A stretch of DNA of 26,611 bases from a virus (lineage: Duplodnaviria; Caudoviricetes), in the IMG/VR virus record IMGVR_UViG_3300035534_000170, positions 1 to 26,611 of that record. One strand, written 5' to 3'. The translations under genes and the position numbers were made by a program. Below are positions 2,483 through 20,703 of the stretch, piece after piece. The first letter of the stretch is position 1. Each line of letters starts with the position of its first letter. A model generated the notes under the pieces. That model saw nothing but the letters and a program-made list of their open reading frames with translations, had not been told where the DNA came from and did no database searches.

Positions 2483-3033
2483 TAGAAATATCCGATAATT
2501 TAATTAAAGAAATTGAGAAAACTCTGGGAAGATATAAGAGTAAAGCTCCTGTAGTTTTATATAGAGCTCTTAATAGAGCTGTATCAACTGCAAGAGCTTC
2601 CGCTGCTAAAAAGACAAAAAAAGAATATCACATTAAATCTAGTGATGTTAAAAAAACAATAACTACGATTAAAGCTCGCAGGTCTGACCTGGGAGCTTCT
2701 CTAGTTTCTGAGGGAGAACACGTACCTCTAGATAAATTCCGGTATAAACCTAGAAACCCCAGGCCATCTAATCCTCCTCAGCTAAAAGTTGCTATCAAAA
2801 GGGATGGCTATAAAGATTTAAAAGATGCTTTTGTTACTGATGTGAATGGCAACAAAATTTTTAAAAGAGTTGGCCAGGATAGATTGCCTATTTCCAGATT
2901 ATCTGGTCCGGCTGTACCGCAAATGATTGCCAATGAAGATACTGCAGATTTTACAGAAAAACAGGCAGAAGCAACATTTTTCAAAAGGTTAGATCATGAA
3001 ATCAAAAGATTAGTTGTGGAGAGTGGTAAATAA
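2479..3033 (+). CDS. Minor tail/neck protein Z (lambda gpZ-like)
   Basis: Basic protein with RALNRA, RLPISRLSGPAVPQM and RLDHEI motifs. Confidence 0.8.
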   Translation: MIEISDNLIKEIEKTLGRYKSKAPVVLYRALNRAVSTARASAAKKTKKEYHIKSSDVKKTITTIKARRSDLGASLVSEGEHVPLDKFRYKPRNPRPSNPPQLKVAIKRDGYKDLKDAFVTDVNGNKIFKRVGQDRLPISRLSGPAVPQMIANEDTADFTEKQAEATFFKRLDHEIKRLVVESGK

Positions 3034-3500
3034 TGATACCAGTATTATTTCAAAAACATTTAGTAGAGGAAGAACTGCCAGATCTTTTTAAAGACGTCAC
3101 TCTAATTAATTCAAAAAAAGAAGCATCAAAATTAAATTTCCACAAACAATATTTACCACAGAAAAATAGAAATAAAGAAGATTTTCCATATATAAATGTC
3201 ATTTTACTCAATGGTGAAAGACAGGACGAACAGTCCGGTAATATGGCTCACGTCTTATTTATGGCCGGTGTTTATGATGAAAATGAAAATAACCAGGGAT
3301 ATCAAGATAGTTTTATATTAATCAATAAGTTATATCAGCATATTAACAGCAAAAGAATTATTAAAAATAAATATGTTTTAGAGTTTCCAGTCAAATGGAT
3401 GACTAACGATGATGTGACTTATCCTTATTTTTATACTGCACTGGAAACTTACTGGTCTATCGCAAAACAAGAACAATCGCACGAAAATTTATATTTATAA
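3033..3500 (+). CDS. Tail terminator/completion protein
   Basis: Directly before the sheath gene; DFPYINV and FPVKW...TYPYF motifs; TAATG coupling. Confidence 0.6.
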   Translation: MIPVLFQKHLVEEELPDLFKDVTLINSKKEASKLNFHKQYLPQKNRNKEDFPYINVILLNGERQDEQSGNMAHVLFMAGVYDENENNQGYQDSFILINKLYQHINSKRIIKNKYVLEFPVKWMTNDDVTYPYFYTALETYWSIAKQEQSHENLYL

Positions 3501-12486: not shown

Positions 12487-14421
12487 ATGGCCAAATTTAA
12501 TAGTTTAAAATTAACTAATGATGGTCTAGATTTACAATCAAAAGCTCAAGCAGGAACACTTTTAGAGTTTAGCAGAGTGGCTGTTGGAGATGGAGAATTA
12601 CCAGATGGAACTGACTTAATTGACTTAACATCTTTAATAAATGAAAAAGAAAGTTTAGATATAACTTCTATTTCAGTTGATGAAGATGGAAATGCAAAAG
12701 TTAGATCAACAATTTCAAACCAGGGATTAGATAATGGTTTTTATATTAGAGAAATAGGTCTTTTTGCTAATGATCCAGATAAGGGAGAAATACTTTATTG
12801 TATAGCAAATGCAGGTGATTTAGCAGATTATTTACCATCAGGATACGGAACCGATATAGTTGAATCTACTTTAGATTTAATTACTGTTGTAGGTAATGCA
12901 GATAATGTTGCCGCAGAAATTAATAAAAGCTTAACTTATGCTTCTATTAAGGATCTTGAAGATTCTTATCAAGATTTAAATGGAGGTGTAACTGTAAGAA
13001 TTGCAGATATATTAACAGAAGGTGTACTTGATGGTGGAGATATAACAGAAAATACTACACCAGACTTAAATATAATTGTTAATAAATTAATTGGTTATAA
13101 TTCCAATGGTTCTAGAATTAATTTAGTAAGCAATCAGACTTTAGATTTAAGTACTTATTTGCCTACTACTACTGGAAATGAAAAATATGTAAGTATTTAT
13201 ATTGATGCCATAGACTTAGAAACTAACACAGAAATTAATATAGTAGAGGGAACTTCAGCTATTGCTGGTAGTGCTAAAAGACCTGATATTGACAATAGTC
13301 AAGGTGTATTATTAGCAGATGTATCACTATCTGAAGGTCAAACAAGTATAGTTAATAGTGATATAGAAGAATTTAGAAAACAAAAAATCTATTTTGAGGG
13401 AAAAACTCAGCAAAAAGAAAATATTAGTGCATTAACAAATCCAAAAAGAATGAATAGAAGGGCAGATTTTTCATCTTCATTTATAAATTTTACGAAATAT
13501 AAGAAAAATCCTATATTAAGTGGAGATATAGAAACCCAAAATCAAGCTGGGTTTGTATCTGTTATACATGCTGAAGATGTACTATCAAGTCCTATTGATA
13601 AATTTTATATGTTTTGGGCAGGGCACGATGGTGGAGGTATAAGATTAGCAACAGCTCCACACCCTTTAGGACCTTGGACTAGATATGGAAAGTTATTTGA
13701 TGTGACTGACGCAGGTGGAGGTAACCATGTTAGTTCCCCAGAAGTATTCTATCATCCAGAAAGTAATCAATTGGTTATGTTATATCATAGAAGCCATATA
13801 GTCACTAAAAATGGTATTACAACAACTATTCAAGATACTGAAAAAGCCTATCACTCTACTTTAACTGATGGAATAACTTGGAGCGGGTTTGAACCAGTTG
13901 CAGAAGCATCTTTAGATGGCCACTGGGATGATAAGACTAAAGCCTATATGCGGACTATGAGAATACAAGATTATTACATTGGAGTTTGTCAAAGTAGAGA
14001 TCAAAATGCTAATACTAAAGGTGTAAACTTATTGATATCAGCTAAAGATAATATTAACTATGGAATTGCTAGTTTAATACCTCTTTTTTATAACACTCAA
14101 TATGTTGATGAGTATGATCCAAGTGGGGATATAGGCGGCGCACCTAACTTGTTTTTATATGAAGGAGGTTTGTGGTTGCTTTATGGTGATGGGAATACTA
14201 ATAGAATTATAAAAGCTGCACCATTAAATGAACCATATTTAAAACATCCTCCTGTAACTGATGTACTATCTCCTACAGAAACCTGGGAAGGTTCTATGCT
14301 AGAAGCTCCTTGTCCTTTTGTTTGGGATGGTGTAATTTATCTCTATTACAATTCTATTACAGACAATTTTAGCAAAAGAGAAGTCGGGGTTGCTTATTAT
14401 GATTGGAGGGAGGAACAATAA
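12487..14421 (+). CDS. Tail fibre / receptor-binding protein with C-terminal glycosidase-like 5-bladed beta-propeller
   Basis: N-terminal P2 gpH-type anchor (LTNDG, VAVGDG, GFYIREIGLFA). C-terminal KYKKNPIL, IRLATAPHPLGPW, HVSSPEV and EAPCPFVWDGVIYLYY motifs resemble GH43/GH130-clan propellers. Confidence 0.8.
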   Translation: MAKFNSLKLTNDGLDLQSKAQAGTLLEFSRVAVGDGELPDGTDLIDLTSLINEKESLDITSISVDEDGNAKVRSTISNQGLDNGFYIREIGLFANDPDKGEILYCIANAGDLADYLPSGYGTDIVESTLDLITVVGNADNVAAEINKSLTYASIKDLEDSYQDLNGGVTVRIADILTEGVLDGGDITENTTPDLNIIVNKLIGYNSNGSRINLVSNQTLDLSTYLPTTTGNEKYVSIYIDAIDLETNTEINIVEGTSAIAGSAKRPDIDNSQGVLLADVSLSEGQTSIVNSDIEEFRKQKIYFEGKTQQKENISALTNPKRMNRRADFSSSFINFTKYKKNPILSGDIETQNQAGFVSVIHAEDVLSSPIDKFYMFWAGHDGGGIRLATAPHPLGPWTRYGKLFDVTDAGGGNHVSSPEVFYHPESNQLVMLYHRSHIVTKNGITTTIQDTEKAYHSTLTDGITWSGFEPVAEASLDGHWDDKTKAYMRTMRIQDYYIGVCQSRDQNANTKGVNLLISAKDNINYGIASLIPLFYNTQYVDEYDPSGDIGGAPNLFLYEGGLWLLYGDGNTNRIIKAAPLNEPYLKHPPVTDVLSPTETWEGSMLEAPCPFVWDGVIYLYYNSITDNFSKREVGVAYYDWREEQ

Positions 14422-15053
14422 TGTCTAAAATTAATTTTTTGCAGGCTTTAATTGATATTAAAGAAAAAGAATACAGCAATAAAATAGAAACAAAAGCTCC
14501 TATGTTAGGTACACTGGAAAGCTGGTTTTCAACTTCTTTAATCAGTGACGGTTCTGTTACTGTAGACCAATCAAAAGGTGCTATTGTGCAAGAGATAGGA
14601 ACTGCAGGTGGTGGAGAGGCAGAATTAAGACACCCTGATGTGTATTTTAAACCTTCAAATTATGCACATGTTGAAATTAAGGGTATAATTGAAGGTGAGA
14701 ATATACAACCGGGCACAGAACTAAATATTAATTTTGCTAATGCTACCAGTAATCCAGATAATTACTTTATGATAGATATTGGGAATAATCAAGTGAAAGT
14801 TAATAAAAATGGAACATTAACTGAAACACCAATTAAAACATTTATGCCTAATTATAAAATGCAATATACAATTTTCTGGAATAGGGAGAAATATGTAGAG
14901 GTGTATATTGATGGAATGTTCCAAGGGAGATTTAGTCCACCAGATGTTGACGCTAATTATTATTTGCGTCAATATCTTTATAATTCTTCTACAGCACAAA
15001 CTCAAAGGTTAAGGACATACCTATATGAGATAAGGTATTATTATAAGTCTTAA
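14421..15053 (+). CDS. Beta-rich protein, possible ConA-like lectin fold; tail-fibre-associated
   Basis: TAATG coupling to the fibre stop, RBS GGAGG; YTIFWNREKYVEVYIDG resembles a ConA/LamG/GH16 strand motif. Confidence 0.5.
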   Translation: MSKINFLQALIDIKEKEYSNKIETKAPMLGTLESWFSTSLISDGSVTVDQSKGAIVQEIGTAGGGEAELRHPDVYFKPSNYAHVEIKGIIEGENIQPGTELNINFANATSNPDNYFMIDIGNNQVKVNKNGTLTETPIKTFMPNYKMQYTIFWNREKYVEVYIDGMFQGRFSPPDVDANYYLRQYLYNSSTAQTQRLRTYLYEIRYYYKS

Positions 15054-15207
15054 GCTATACAGTACAGGTGAAAAAAAATATAAAAATATTATTTTATTTA
15101 GCCTCTTGAACAGGGCTTCTTAATGTGACCAGAATTAAAAAGTTGATGTGGTAAACAGATAATTAAATACTTTCGCCTTGTAGTGAGGCTGTTTGAGGTG
15201 AAAACAC

Positions 15208-15666
15208 GTGAATGCTAAATGGAGACCGTTTATAGACGAAGTTAATTATTATATAGATAATTTTTTAAATCATCCAGCAATAAAAGGTTGTTTTGCAGCA
15301 GGGGGCACAATAGTGACTATGTTTTTTGGAAATATTAATGCGCCTATGCAAGGATTTCTTATTCTGTTAGCTATAGATTACATAACAGGATTAACAAAAG
15401 CAAGCAAAAAAGGGCAGCTATCAAGCTGGATGTCTCGAAAAGGGTGGGGGAAAATAGCCACATATTCTATAGTGATTTCTCTTGGCCATCTTGTGACTCA
15501 AATAGGAATTGATGGCATGAGAGATTTTGTTATTTTATGGGCCGGAGCAACAGAAACAATATCAATTATTGAAAACTGTGATGAGCTCGGTATATATATA
15601 CCTGCTTTTTTAAGAGAAAAATTATTAAAAACAAAAGAAAATAAATTTGGAGAGGAGCTAAAATAA
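15208..15666 (+). CDS. Holin (toxin secretion/phage lysis holin family)
   Basis: IDYITG, KGWGK and ETISIIEN...LGIYIP motifs; GTG start with RBS GAGGTG. Confidence 0.9.
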   Translation: MNAKWRPFIDEVNYYIDNFLNHPAIKGCFAAGGTIVTMFFGNINAPMQGFLILLAIDYITGLTKASKKGQLSSWMSRKGWGKIATYSIVISLGHLVTQIGIDGMRDFVILWAGATETISIIENCDELGIYIPAFLREKLLKTKENKFGEELK

Positions 15667-16151
15667 TGGATGTAAAAGATATCAGGGATCAATTGCCTAA
15701 GCATGAATCTAAAAAATATCCAAAGAGAAATATTCAGGATATAAATCATATTGATATTCACCATAGTGCATCACCAACTGCTAACTATAAAGGTGTAGAA
15801 ACTATAGAAGGGTTTGCAAGATATCATATTAATAGTCATGGGTGGCCGGGACTAGGATATCACCACGTTATATCACCTGATGGGGATATTTTTAAAACTG
15901 GATATGCTTCAGAGAGTCGGTGGAGTGTTGGTGGGAACAATAGTTACACTATATCAGTTATGATTGTTGGGCGTTTTGATCAGGAAGAAATATTCGATAA
16001 ACAATATCAAGCATTATTGTGGTTGGTTAGACAACTTATGTCAGCATATAATGTTCCAAAAGAAAATGTAAAAGGCCATAATGAATACCCTGGTCATTCC
16101 AGCAATACTTGTCCAGGTATTAATATGGATAAACTCAGGAGTGATTTATAA
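15666..16151 (+). CDS. Endolysin, Zn-dependent N-acetylmuramoyl-L-alanine amidase (Amidase_2/PGRP-like), catalytic domain only
   Basis: IHHSA, GYHHVI, GHNE and TCPG motifs; 161 aa with no cell-wall-binding domain. Confidence 0.92.
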   Translation: MDVKDIRDQLPKHESKKYPKRNIQDINHIDIHHSASPTANYKGVETIEGFARYHINSHGWPGLGYHHVISPDGDIFKTGYASESRWSVGGNNSYTISVMIVGRFDQEEIFDKQYQALLWLVRQLMSAYNVPKENVKGHNEYPGHSSNTCPGINMDKLRSDL

Positions 16152-16354
16152 TGACTGAAGAAGAAAAACAAGAGCTTCGAGGTAGGTTAATATCGTTTAT
16201 CTCTAGAAAATTTGTACTTGCACTGATTGTTTTAATAGTTTCAACAGTTGTTGTTTTAGAAGGACAATTAGATGCACGCATCTGGCTGGGGATTGTGGCT
16301 GCAGATGTAATTGGTTATGACTATGGAAATGCAAAATCAAAGCAGGTGAGATGA
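16151..16354 (+). CDS. Small 2-TM membrane protein in the lysis cassette (second holin/antiholin-like)
   Basis: SRKF followed by two hydrophobic segments; translationally coupled to the amidase. Confidence 0.55.
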   Translation: MTEEEKQELRGRLISFISRKFVLALIVLIVSTVVVLEGQLDARIWLGIVAADVIGYDYGNAKSKQVR

Positions 16355-16355
16355 A

Positions 16356-16766
16356 ATGATTAAACAAAAACATAAAATCATACTCATTGTAATTGCTGTA
16401 ATTGTCGCTCTATTATTGTTATTTTTTGTTGGCAAAGAAATTGCTGCAGGGTTTGCAGCTGTATTAGGAATTTTCGGATTTAGCAGCAATAAAGCTCTCA
16501 AAAAGAAATCTGACGAGATTAAGAAAAAGGCTGATCAGGAAAAAGAAATCACCAAAAAAGTAGAAAATAATATTGATGATTATCAGAAAAAAGATGAGCA
16601 TCTGCAGAAGAAAGATAAAGAAAGAGTCAAAACAGCTGAAAAATTAAAGGAACAGGGTGAAGACAGAGAAAAAGAAATGCAAAAAATCAGAGATGATCAA
16701 GCAGCAAGAAAAGAAAAAGGTGAAGAGTTAAGTGCTCGATTGGAAGAATTGAAAGGGGATGATTGA
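16356..16766 (+). CDS. Candidate inner-membrane spanin (N-terminal TM + long coiled coil)
   Basis: Basic N-terminus, hydrophobic residues ~8-42, then ~90 aa of K/E-rich helix; located after the endolysin. Confidence 0.55.
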   Translation: MIKQKHKIILIVIAVIVALLLLFFVGKEIAAGFAAVLGIFGFSSNKALKKKSDEIKKKADQEKEITKKVENNIDDYQKKDEHLQKKDKERVKTAEKLKEQGEDREKEMQKIRDDQAARKEKGEELSARLEELKGDD

Positions 16767-17238
16767 AATTAAAAAAATATTAATTGTTATCATAGCTTTA
16801 GTTTTGTTATGCTTTCCAGGACAAATTAATGCTCAGGATCAATCTGATCCAAGTTATCAAGATCTTTTAGAGCGAAACCAGGAACTAATCAAAATTGCTG
16901 AAGATTACAAGGAAATGTGGGAAGAGTCCGAAAAGCAACTTGATAAAGCTGATAAGTCATATACTGAAGAAAAAGCAGAAAAAGAAAAATTCAAAAGACT
17001 GTATGAAAAAGAACGAGAAGATAAAAAAGAATATAGACAATTATATTTAAGTTCTGACGAAGACCTTAAAAAAACTTTGAAATCTAATGAAAGATTACAC
17101 GATTATATTGACAGCTTAAACGAGACTATTGACGAACATTTAGGTAGAAGTAATATATCTGTTTCAACCGGAGTCGGTATAAATGCTAAAAATCCAGAAG
17201 AGAGTTTGTTCATTGTTCAGCTCGAATTTGGAATTTAA
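16759..17238 (+). CDS. Secreted coiled-coil protein with C-terminal amphipathic beta-hairpin; candidate outer-membrane spanin component
   Basis: Sec-type signal peptide ending INA/QD, no canonical lipobox, coiled coil, C-terminus ISVSTGVGIN...LFIVQLEFGI; overlaps the previous gene by 8 nt. Confidence 0.5.
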   Translation: MIEIKKILIVIIALVLLCFPGQINAQDQSDPSYQDLLERNQELIKIAEDYKEMWEESEKQLDKADKSYTEEKAEKEKFKRLYEKEREDKKEYRQLYLSSDEDLKKTLKSNERLHDYIDSLNETIDEHLGRSNISVSTGVGINAKNPEESLFIVQLEFGI

Positions 17239-17266
17239 ATAGATAATTTCTGTAGCGGAGGTAAAT

Positions 17267-17497
17267 ATGCGATACCTTATGTTTTTATTATTAATTATTT
17301 TAGATTTGATTTTCAGTGCAGGAACTTCATTCTTTATTTTAACTAGAAAAATGAAGAAAATTGACAAAAATTCAAGTTGTGGAACCGGGAGTATTGGAGA
17401 AGCAATTATTGCCTGGATAGTTGTTGTGATTATTTTTATAATATTACTTGCTGTATATGGTTCATTATTGTATTGGATCATGTTTCTTTTGCTTTAA
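17267..17497 (+). CDS. Small 2-TM membrane protein
   Basis: RBS GGAGGT; two hydrophobic segments. Confidence 0.7.
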   Translation: MRYLMFLLLIILDLIFSAGTSFFILTRKMKKIDKNSSCGTGSIGEAIIAWIVVVIIFIILLAVYGSLLYWIMFLLL

Positions 17498-17508
17498 AGG
17501 AGGTCATT

Positions 17509-17721
17509 GTGGCTATTCTAAAAGTCTTACTCATTATTGTAGTTTCAATTATAATTTCTGGACTGCAAAGTTATTCTGTGTATAGGTGGTTGCTAAATAC
17601 AGATTATAAAGAACCTTTTAATCCATTTGCTCCATTTGAAAATGCTTTGATCGGAGCAGTAATAGCAGGGATAATTTTTGCATCAATAAACAGCAGCATA
17701 ATGTATTGGATCATATTCTAA
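17509..17721 (+). CDS. Small 2-TM membrane protein (70 aa), paralogue of the preceding gene
   Basis: AAGGAGGT RBS supports GTG start at 17509 rather than 17377; aligns by eye with 17267-17497. Confidence 0.7.
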   Translation: MAILKVLLIIVVSIIISGLQSYSVYRWLLNTDYKEPFNPFAPFENALIGAVIAGIIFASINSSIMYWIIF

Positions 17722-17727
17722 TTATTT

Positions 17728-17758
17728 AACCTCAGGTGAAAGCCTGGGGTCTTTTTTT
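17728..17758 (+). terminator. Rho-independent terminator ending the late operon
   Basis: ACCTCAGG-TGAAAG-CCTGGGGT hairpin followed by C and T7. Confidence 0.85.
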
Positions 17759-17818: not shown

Positions 17819-18760
17819 ATGATTAATATGGATAATAAGAGATATTTAATTACAGGAGGAACAGGATTTATTGGATCTCATTTAGCAAACAAATTAGCTG
17901 ATTTAGGAAAAGATGTTTATGTAATTTCGCATTCAAAAAATAATTTATGGAGAATAGACAATAAAGATAAAATAAATATAAAGTTTGCTGATTTGAAAGA
18001 TCTTAATAGACTAAGGAAAGTTATATCAGAAATCAAACCCGATATTATATTTCATTTAGCTGCCTATGTCAATGCTTCTAGAGATTTTAATGGTATTGAT
18101 AAAGCTTTAGATACTAATTTTAATGGGACATTAAATTTATTGAAAGCATTAAATGAAATAGAATATGATTTATTTGTTAATACTGGAACTTGTGAAGAAT
18201 ATGGTACTGGAAAATCACCTTTTAATGAAAATCAAAAAGAACATCCAGTTTCTCCATATTCTTTATCAAAGACTTGTACAACTTATTTATGTGAGTTATT
18301 TTCTAAAATTTATGATAATCCCATTATGACAGTCAGACCTTTTTTAACCTATGGACCTAAACAAACTTCTAAAATGTTAATTCCAGAACTTATAAATAAT
18401 GGTTTAAATAAAACTGAAATGAAATTAACTCCAGGTGAGCAAACAAGAGATTTTATTTTTGTAGATGATTTAATAGAAGGTTATTTAACAATATTAAATA
18501 ATTATAAAAAATTTAATGAATATAAAATTTATAATATAGGAACAGGAAAACAAATTTTAATTAAAGATGTAGTTAATATTGTTAGTGATTTTATTCCTGA
18601 AAACGATTTTAAATTAGGAGCGAGGTCATATAGAAAAGGGGAGACAATGGAATTTTATTCAGATAATACTAGTCTTAAAGAATTGGGTTGGCAATCTAAA
18701 ATATCAATTGAAAAAGGATTAGAAATGACTATTAATTGGTGGAAAAATTATTTGAAATAA
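17819..18760 (+). CDS. NAD-dependent epimerase/dehydratase (extended SDR), resembling CDP-3,6-dideoxyhexose synthases; moron. Likely start ATG 17828
   Basis: TGGTGFIG, FHLAA, NTGTCEEYG, YSLSK (YxxxK), GEQTRDFIFVDD and YNIGTG motifs; very AT-rich, flanked by terminators. Confidence 0.88.
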   Translation: MINMDNKRYLITGGTGFIGSHLANKLADLGKDVYVISHSKNNLWRIDNKDKINIKFADLKDLNRLRKVISEIKPDIIFHLAAYVNASRDFNGIDKALDTNFNGTLNLLKALNEIEYDLFVNTGTCEEYGTGKSPFNENQKEHPVSPYSLSKTCTTYLCELFSKIYDNPIMTVRPFLTYGPKQTSKMLIPELINNGLNKTEMKLTPGEQTRDFIFVDDLIEGYLTILNNYKKFNEYKIYNIGTGKQILIKDVVNIVSDFIPENDFKLGARSYRKGETMEFYSDNTSLKELGWQSKISIEKGLEMTINWWKNYLK

Positions 18761-18882
18761 AAATTTTAATTATAGTTATTTACATTACATTTAATGATTA
18801 ATATTTTGTTATTAGAATATTTTTTATAAATTTCTCTATCTATAAAAAAGTGAAACTTTACATATTTTAATATTAATTATCT

Positions 18883-18915
18883 AACCTCTGGGGCGAAAGC
18901 TCTTGAGGTTTTTTT
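18883..18915 (+). terminator. Rho-independent terminator after the epimerase moron
   Basis: AACCTCTGGGGC-GAAA-GCTCTTGAGGTT hairpin running into a T-tract. Confidence 0.85.
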
Positions 18916-18995
18916 GTAATTATGCAGGAATTTACTATATTTCCTCTAAATAATGTAAATATAGTCATAATATTTTAAAAAGGGGGAAATTGTGA

Positions 18996-19931
18996 ATGTC
19001 ATCAGTTCTTTATTTTGCTAAGATAAATGTTGCTTCACATGTTCAACAAATGTATAAATCTGGTCATGAAAAAAGAGAGGAGATTTTAAACTTAATTATC
19101 AAAAACATTAATAATGAATTAGAATGTGATAGAGAAGCAAAATATAGTGTTGAAGGAGAAGAGGAAACTTATAATGCTAATTATAAATTTAAATACATAC
19201 AAAAAGATGGTAAAGTTGTAATAGGAAATGTTATAAAAAACGCTCCTGTTAAAGTTAGAAAGTTAGATGAAAGAACTGGAAATATATATGTAAATGCTGA
19301 AGAAAACTTTGAATTAATACAATTTTATTATGACGTTTCAAAGGAAATAGTAACATTTTATAGGACCCAAAGATTTGGGTATAAGGAATTTGTAACTGCC
19401 TTTGAAATGCTATTAAATAAAGCTATGGAAAATGAAGAAGATGACTATGAAATTGAGGTTGAACTTTTAAGAGAAGGCCTAAATATAGATAAAATTAAAG
19501 AAGAACTAAAGAAATTAGGTAAAATAAAGGATTTAAAAATTACAATTAATCCTCCAAATCCAAATGAAGAACAATTAGATTCAGCACTAAAAAGAGGTGA
19601 AGAAGAACTAGAAGAATTTAAAAAAGCAAATATCACAAGTTCAAGCGTTTTATTTGAAACAAAAGATAAAGATGGAATAAATATTGATTCACCTATGGTA
19701 GAAAAAGAAATAGAAAGAACTAATTATATCCATTCCAAAATGAAAAGTGAAGAAGCTACATCAAAAGGTGATGCTAAAATTGAAGCTAGTAATATAAATG
19801 GCCGGTCATTTTCTACTGAAAAAAGTGATCCTATAAAAGATAGTATAACTGCCAGTCAAAAAGATGATTTTGGAGAATTTATAGAAGTTTGTCAAAAAAA
19901 GATTGCATCAGTAATTAGTTCATTTTTATAA
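18996..19931 (+). CDS. Soluble protein, DUF4747-like; putative defence sensor
   Basis: 311 aa, no TM; FYYDVSKEIVTF and IKDLKITINPPNP patterns recall DUF4747 proteins (from memory, not searched); first gene of a two-gene moron. Confidence 0.5.
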   Translation: MSSVLYFAKINVASHVQQMYKSGHEKREEILNLIIKNINNELECDREAKYSVEGEEETYNANYKFKYIQKDGKVVIGNVIKNAPVKVRKLDERTGNIYVNAEENFELIQFYYDVSKEIVTFYRTQRFGYKEFVTAFEMLLNKAMENEEDDYEIEVELLREGLNIDKIKEELKKLGKIKDLKITINPPNPNEEQLDSALKRGEEELEEFKKANITSSSVLFETKDKDGINIDSPMVEKEIERTNYIHSKMKSEEATSKGDAKIEASNINGRSFSTEKSDPIKDSITASQKDDFGEFIEVCQKKIASVISSFL

Positions 19932-19947
19932 GAAAGGAGCCATACCT

Positions 19948-20703
19948 TTGGGAGTATTTAAAAAGATATCTAATTATAATAAGTGGAAAGATCTATATAA
20001 AATAAAATCATTAGAAGTATATGGTTCTTTAATTTTAACCATTATTTTAATATTTTTATTTAGACACATCAATTTTTTTCAATGTTTTATATTGTATGAA
20101 ACTCCAGTAAAAAATATTTCTTTAAGCATTGGATCAGCATTACTGGGGATGCTAAGTATAATTTTGGCTGGAATTGCAATTATTATAGGAATGTTAAATA
20201 AAGATATTAATAATAAAATAAAAGAATTAAATGAAAAAGATATTATGGGAGAGGTTCTGGCCAGCTTTGTTTTTATAGCTTTTTTAATAGCCATTGAATT
20301 AACAGTTTTTTATTTAATATATTTACTTTTATATAGCCAAATAACTATTGGCTCAGAATATTTATTTTATATTATTGTAGCTGCAGTAATATATTTGTTT
20401 TTCTTTATAATTTTTTATATAATCGGTTTAATAAATAACTGCATTAAAATATATTCAATCATTGAAACTTATGAAGAAATAATTAATAGTGAAAAAAATA
20501 TATTTACATCTGCAAATGAACTAAGAATAGAATTTATTTTGCATCTATTGCTAAATGAAGATTATAAAAATGAATTTTTAAATAAGCTTTCTGGATCTGA
20601 AGATCAAAGAACTATTTTCTTGCAGGAGTTGATAAATTATACTAGAAATAGTAAAATAGAAAATAAGGAAGAAATAATAGATTATTTCATAAAATTTTAT
20701 TGA
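19948..20703 (+). CDS. 4-TM membrane protein with soluble C-terminal domain; putative defence effector
   Basis: TTG start with RBS AAAGGAG; four hydrophobic segments; 16 nt downstream of its partner. Confidence 0.65.
   Translation: MGVFKKISNYNKWKDLYKIKSLEVYGSLILTIILIFLFRHINFFQCFILYETPVKNISLSIGSALLGMLSIILAGIAIIIGMLNKDINNKIKELNEKDIMGEVLASFVFIAFLIAIELTVFYLIYLLLYSQITIGSEYLFYIIVAAVIYLFFFIIFYIIGLINNCIKIYSIIETYEEIINSEKNIFTSANELRIEFILHLLLNEDYKNEFLNKLSGSEDQRTIFLQELINYTRNSKIENKEEIIDYFIKFY

Follow-up and report, generated by a model that had tools for sequence, protein, structure and literature searches.

The locus described here holds a concrete, small, and cloneable candidate for the step by which phages of diderm Firmicutes cross the outer membrane of their hosts. 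The window (the whole stretch of viral DNA analyzed, 26,611 nucleotides of IMG/VR record IMGVR_UViG_3300035534_000170) carries head, tail, lysis, and integration modules, and its lysis cassette includes two overlapping genes, here called A and B. To our knowledge, all spanins described so far depend on a lipoprotein in the outer membrane. A preliminary description of this DNA had read A and B as a candidate spanin pair whose outer subunit is a secreted protein held by beta-hairpins, an interpretation that our analysis partly supports. A/B is a real, conserved, and undescribed module, and we lean toward viewing it as a lipoprotein-free spanin analogue that would breach the outer membrane of diderm Firmicute hosts. 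No description of the family was found in the literature searched, with subscription journals and bioRxiv supplements lying outside that search.

Layout of the lysis cassette

All genes of the cassette lie on the plus strand. It opens with a holin of the Phage_holin_4_1 family (15208..15666; PF05105, E 9e-25), followed by a catalytic-only Amidase_2 endolysin of 161 residues (15666..16151; PF01510 over residues 25-151, E 8.5e-20, without a second domain), in whose sequence no signal peptide was seen. Protein A (136 residues, 16356..16766) and protein B (159 residues, 16759..17238) come next, their ORFs overlapping by 8 nt. The preliminary description had placed the overlapping pair after the holin and the catalytic-only amidase; our results confirm that order, and add an ORF for a 67-residue, two-helix membrane protein with an SRKF motif between the amidase and A (16151..16354). 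This protein aligns with proteins directly upstream of A or of A-B fusions at five other loci; its best PHROG match is weak, to phrog_13256, to which no function is assigned there, and our guess is that it is a holin-like accessory. At other loci its slot is filled by unrelated membrane proteins of 80-96 residues, some of them matching the holin family phrog_1299, so that many cassettes possess two holin-like genes.

Downstream of B are two small hydrophobic ORFs (17267-17497 and about 17509-17721, together 17267..17721), neither with a family match, which are also found 3' of B at five related loci (L001-L003, L005, and L006). A terminator scan placed a terminator-like hairpin 3' of both, at 17729-17750, while promoter-like sites were at chance level (18 against 15.3 expected by chance). 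Positions 15000-17459 of the window are identical to a contig from an oil-field metagenome run (X1), which is possibly the window's own origin, and identical but shorter pieces of the region also occur in X3 and X4.

Further features were observed around this and related cassettes. A tail-fibre protein at 12487-14421 contains a region resembling glycosyl hydrolase family 43 (PF04616, E 7e-7, below the family cut-off), and the gap between the lysis and integration modules (17819-20703) is filled with low-GC cargo comprising an NAD-dependent epimerase/dehydratase and two ORFs. At L001:347-1303, a reverse-transcriptase-like ORF (YxDD, read by eye) lies directly upstream of the lysis cassette, as it does in L002, L003, L005, L006, L008, L013, L014, L019, and L020, and is absent from the corresponding position of the window; its place beside the cassette in related phages suggests diversity-generating retroelements.

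Protein B and its predicted anchor

Protein B consists of a signal peptide, a long coiled coil, and a C-terminal beta-hairpin. The signal peptide (residues 1-25, 16759..16833) is a hydrophobic region followed by an INA/QD site, whose Ala25 is invariant in alignment A1. It had been read as signal-peptidase-I-like, with its Cys in a poor lipobox, and the homologues bear this out. Among B and 13 close homologues (69-92% identical), Cys18 is present in 4/14 sequences, never within a lipobox, and replaced in the other ten, one of which is 91% identical to B of the window. Across 78 B signal regions (79 sequences, excluding one fragment without a signal), a permissive signal-peptidase-I pattern occurs in 71, a Cys in 23, and a strict lipobox in 5; four of these five belong to a single LAAC clade and none to the clade of the window. 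Lipidation at the Cys had been named as a check on the beta-anchored reading, which survives it, given that the Cys is not conserved. Judged by its sequence, B is not a lipoprotein.

It is highly improbable, then, that A/B is a conventional two-component spanin whose B subunit is lipidated at an atypical lipobox. That explanation can draw on the presence of Cys18 in the window, on the strict lipobox in 5/78 homologues, on the existence of unusual lipoboxes such as AWAC (mentioned in the spanin survey PMC6139136, in the parts available to us), and on matches to Rz-like PHROGs. Those matches are weak (best E 0.004 for A, range 0.004-0.08, and 0.036 for B), and they are at the level of generic matches to any anchor plus coiled coil. 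Replacement of the Cys in 10/14 close sequences also argues against a lipoprotein, as does the result that LolA was found in none of the 15 carrier genomes, of 17 known, in which it was sought, a result in agreement with diderm Firmicutes being described, in the parts consulted of PMC10665443 and PMC13018214, as lacking a Lol system.

AlphaFold2, run on a 52-sequence alignment, predicted B as one 98-residue helix (residues 31-128, 16849..17142) followed by a terminal hairpin (17155..17229) with strands at residues 133-140 and 150-157, at a mean pLDDT of 85 overall and 85-98 in the helix block across residues 31-120. This matches the earlier reading of a long coiled coil ending in two amphipathic strands. 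Homologues differ by indels of 7 and 14 residues; length variation falls mostly in the middle of the protein, and the 36 residues next to the hairpin are constant. In the last strand of the homologues, hydrophobic residues alternate at positions -1, -3, -5, and -7 from the C-terminus, with Gly at -6 in 52/79 sequences. A BamA-type C-terminal signal is not uniform, as 17/79 sequences end in Pro and only 41 in Phe, the others including Ile (8, among them the window), Leu (8), and Trp (3). Two fused relatives (P0040 and L046:157-870, minus strand) have more strands at the C-terminus, by our reading four instead of two. Such ends would be expected if hairpins pool into a barrel, and we take them as a possible clue to its stoichiometry.

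Searches for relatives outside the family gave little. Neither A nor B matched a Pfam family above cut-off, and no spanin family was among the Pfam results for either protein or among 25 of the 53 NCBIfam families matched by 52 members. Foldseek against viral and PDB libraries returned no structural match at E<=0.001, a PDB sequence search only generic coiled-coil matches (best E 0.002), and tblastn of B and of the fused homologue P0050 against 50,697 named phage records no match.

Protein A, gene fusions, and a proposed mechanism

Protein A was expected to be a single N-terminal membrane anchor followed by about 90 residues of coiled coil. The coil was confirmed, at 93 residues, but not the plain single anchor: hydropathy shows a strong helix at residues 8-25 and a weaker, hydrophobic, Gly/Ala-rich one at 29-43 (16440..16484), followed by a lysine cluster, the two helices forming a predicted inner-membrane anchor. 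The second helix is predicted to return the chain to the cytoplasm. Considered alone, A of the window is compatible with either topology.

Many distant homologues are a single ORF combining A and B, with the signal peptide kept internally. A of the window is 39% identical over 70 aa (E 8e-13) to the N-terminal part of one such fusion, P0050, an Iocasia frigidifontis (Halanaerobiales) protein according to NCBI, whose gene lies behind holin and amidase genes where a prophage tail module ends. At the fusion junctions, at least four Lys or Arg residues lie within the 12 residues before the internal hydrophobic region in 24/26 sequences, and acidic residues outnumber basic ones in the 15 residues after it in 26/26; the consensus of the internal signal ends in PVxA. 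Under the positive-inside rule the internal signal is thus oriented N-in, C-out, and because no hydrophobic segment separates it from the A anchor, the A coil of the fused forms would be made in the cytoplasm, which renders a simple periplasmic i-spanin doubtful. The two-helix anchor of the window lineage, a hairpin kept in A and in the fusions P0050, P0028, and P0051, fits a cytoplasmic coil. In other lineages the anchor is one short helix, and split A proteins of this type could be ordinary type II anchors; for split genes it is possible that A is periplasmic from the start. An internal translation start as the explanation for the fusions was ruled out, since a start codon with a Shine-Dalgarno-like motif precedes the internal signal in 1/10 fused genes with DNA, and the fusions are probably real polyproteins. 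Fused and split states changed at least twice on a tree of 34 B sequences whose root is not known.

The lengths of the two coiled coils vary together. Across 34 pairs (24 fused and 10 split; the other 18 of the 52 aligned B sequences had no A gene paired with them), A and B coil lengths correlate with a Spearman coefficient of 0.90, or 0.88 when only fused forms are counted. For the 10 split pairs by themselves the coefficient is -0.14 within a narrow range, nine of them being of nearly one length. Independent contrasts gave r=0.87 over 33 contrasts, with 13/15 sizeable ones in the same direction. Both this co-variation and the fusion genes with their internal signal peptide are new here, and together they support, indirectly, a partnership between A and B. 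The length pattern points to a pairing that would run along the whole coil, although both coils tracking the width of the periplasm would give an identical pattern. Indel positions do not decide between parallel and antiparallel pairing, as a short A coil can be aligned with either end of a long one. Antiparallel pairing would be favored because it alone brings the N-terminal anchor of A and the C-terminal anchor of B together.

From these observations we infer the functional steps of a model. B would be exported by Sec and cleaved by signal peptidase, several copies would pool their hairpins into a small outer-membrane barrel from which the coiled coils hang into the periplasm, and A would be held in the inner membrane by its anchor; where A and B are fused, cleavage of the polyprotein by signal peptidase would yield these same two products, with the A coil starting in the cytoplasm. 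After holin lesions have formed and the amidase has degraded the wall, the A coil would reach the B coil, and the two would zip together over their full length, probably antiparallel, bringing both anchors into contact and fusing or tearing the membranes. Holin lesions are known to pass folded endolysin; as the amidase has no visible signal peptide, its release requires holin lesions that a folded protein can cross, and through lesions of such size a cytoplasmic A coil could reach B too. An A coil that stays cytoplasmic cannot meet B before lysis, and its route through the holin lesions is something we purely infer. Zippering that draws two anchors together is familiar from SNAREs and class I fusion proteins, and a coiled coil followed by strands pooled between chains from the anchors of trimeric autotransporters; for A/B these are mechanical analogies only, as no sequence or fold match to them was found. 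The dimensions of the short members count against the model: at 0.15 nm per residue, the two coils of forms with about 45 + 60 residues, placed end to end, would reach no further than about 16 nm, less than the 24 nm measured for the Veillonella periplasm in section 8 of PMC10665443.

A different division of labor would have B attack the outer membrane alone, either as an oligomeric hairpin pore or as an uncleaved one-piece bridge, with A acting as a cytoplasmic chaperone or timer that covers the B coil until lysis. This would account for the cytoplasmic topology of the fused forms, the fusions, and the matched lengths without A having to cross the membrane. We nevertheless consider it rather unlikely: the conserved cleavage site argues against a one-piece bridge, the membrane anchor of A is kept in all sequences examined and would not be needed by a soluble chaperone, and virions would not fit through a small barrel. 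Veillonella MlaD (PMC10665443, section 8) offers a precedent for a one-piece bridge: a single chain is anchored in the inner membrane, continues as a long helix, and forms a barrel in the outer membrane. As portrayed in that section, MlaD is a diderm Firmicute protein in which a long helix and a beta anchor replace an outer-membrane lipoprotein, as proposed for B, but each chain forms a complete ten-stranded barrel and moves lipids, whereas B has two strands and would have to oligomerize.

Returning to A/B as a spanin analogue, comparison with described spanins, as they appear in the parts of PMC6139136 consulted, shows both kinship and distance. In lambda, Rz is a class II protein with a periplasmic coiled coil and Rz1 an outer-membrane lipoprotein. 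A/B shares with them the overlapping last genes of a lysis cassette, an inner-membrane coiled-coil subunit with an outer subunit, and diderm hosts. Unlike Rz1, B lacks a conserved lipobox, has a long coiled coil of its own and a C-terminal beta-hairpin, and is predicted to be anchored by its C-terminus; unlike Rz, A probably does not take the class II orientation (N-in, C-out), at any rate when fused; and unlike either, A and B are often one polyprotein and their sequence match to Rz/Rz1 is not above chance. Of the features that mark two-component spanins, A/B thus has the location in or beside the lysis cassette of a phage with a diderm host, but neither the lipobox Cys nor a sequence match to spanin families. 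The unimolecular spanin T1 gp11, described there as a mostly beta periplasmic domain with a lipoylation signal and a transmembrane helix, likewise shows that one gene can supply both membrane anchors, but the fused A-B is helical, without lipid anchor, and has an internal cleavage site; A/B displays a helical body, a terminal hairpin, and no lipobox where that class has a lipoprotein, a beta-rich periplasmic domain, and a transmembrane helix. Lacking the lipoprotein of both classes, A/B is a member of neither, yet probably works like a spanin. Section 15 of the same survey (Kongari 2018) anticipates that the o-spanin role could be filled by an outer-membrane protein, and gives no example there.

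A family compared with B is DUF6808 (PF20647), which arose as an ESM Atlas lead (0.80-0.82). In the one example read (L062:441-1776) it follows, by ORF reading, a holin-like gene and a peptidase-like endolysin, and ends in an amphipathic hairpin. In contrast to B, its body looks beta-rich and not coiled coil, and the A partner is absent; B has no Pfam match to PF20647, and hhalign gave a probability of 1.3% to a member. DUF6808 is a possible analogue of B, homology not being shown, and may represent another unrecognized spanin-like family. Kongari et al. (PMC6139136, in the parts consulted) list the Bacteroides phage B124-14 among those without a spanin; it was considered as a carrier of A/B or DUF6808 and rejected, as the protein directly 3' of its endolysin (L007:6765-7370) is a membrane-anchored DUF6549 protein instead.

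Hosts, genomic context, and chromosomal copies

Had homologues been common in phages of monoderm hosts, the proposed role would be difficult to sustain; carriers were found in Omp85-positive genomes only, leaving the idea standing. In an even sample of 401 genomes from one phylum, 100 of them with Omp85 and many of them incomplete bins, the A/B family occurs in 13/100 of those with Omp85 and in 0/301 of those in which Omp85 was not found (Fisher p 8e-9; 3e-8 if the seed genome is excluded), a test that overstates independence because few diderm clades are involved. Weak family matches in the sample proved on reading to be genuine A/B pairs or fusions. The holin family of the window is present, and the pair absent, in 84 Omp85-negative genomes, which are hence not simply devoid of phage-type lysis genes. 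As to the host of the window itself, its holin shares 78% identity with a prophage holin from an Omp85-positive genome (G037) of the class centred on a Halothermothrix bin. Against this host range, one homologue (P0061) is labelled Betaproteobacteria, from a metagenome bin.

The pair is not universal among phages of diderm Firmicutes. It was absent from 87/100 Omp85-positive genomes of the sample and from all 95 genomes of one class (that of G480), and occurred in 5/102 genomes of the seed class (that of G001). Reading the ORFs around 12 holin loci of other Omp85-positive genomes, among them two hydrolase-bearing cassettes of the seed class (L071 and L072), and around eight of Omp85-negative genomes likewise revealed no A/B pair. 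At one locus of an Omp85-positive genome (L070, in G321), a gene 3' of a holin and an amidase-like gene (about 2935-3363, plus strand) encodes a protein of 143 aa that combines a signal peptide with a coiled coil and has a hydrophobic tail at its C-terminus. It is another candidate, distinct from A/B, for breaking the outer membrane.

Whether homologues are confined to lysis cassettes had been proposed as a check: a peptidoglycan hydrolase lies within 3 kb of the pair at 37/40 loci (several being near-duplicate viral contigs), and several copies stand among non-phage genes. The neighboring hydrolases belong to four families (Amidase_2, Amidase_3, GH108, and Hydrolase_2), and the three loci without one within 3 kb are L054 and two short loci. 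Non-phage surroundings, recognized by reading ORF translations and for some copies only by a Pfam scan as well, were seen on both flanks for L053, L054, and L056-L058 and on one flank, the other being cut by the contig end, for L051, L052, and L061.

At most of these sites, a holin-like gene accompanies the pair, together with one for a Hydrolase_2 or Amidase_3 enzyme (L053:9481-11700, L051:42-1346, L052:124-2700, L056-L058, and L061:157-1825). They lie in diderm Firmicute genomes, with synteny between some, and the non-phage copies may be host-encoded self-lysis modules. At L054:10507-11330, an isolated A/B pair lies within 18 kb of non-phage DNA, with no hydrolase gene closer than 3 kb, in a genome that also carries two fused copies adjoining endolysins (L038 and L047).

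These copies raise the alternative that the pair is an envelope module of the lysogen or host, such as an exclusion factor or a vesicle or tether component, and not a lysis device. The several copies among non-phage genes, the hydrolase-free L054, and the many diderm Firmicute cassettes without the pair would all suit such a role. We judge it distinctly unlikely, however, given that the pair is translationally coupled to the cassette and that its neighbors include hydrolases from four unrelated families and holins of several types, a company that it keeps at most non-phage sites too.

Extending the spanin-like reading, we tentatively suggest, while thinking it doubtful as a whole, that A/B constitutes a third spanin class in the form of a polyprotein split by host signal peptidase, in which a B hairpin barrel and a length-matched A coil waiting in the cytoplasm are kept apart by the inner membrane until holin lesions permit assembly, and that the module was adopted into some diderm Firmicute chromosomes for self-lysis. 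The word spanin does not occur in the main text of a survey of Negativicutes prophages (bioRxiv 10.1101/606087), and A/B provides a search pattern for phages without a recognized spanin. If the proposed function is true, the pair would bring lysis biology a beta-anchored fusogen and perhaps a new principle of timing, while its chromosomal copies offer a lead on the self-lysis of diderm Firmicutes.
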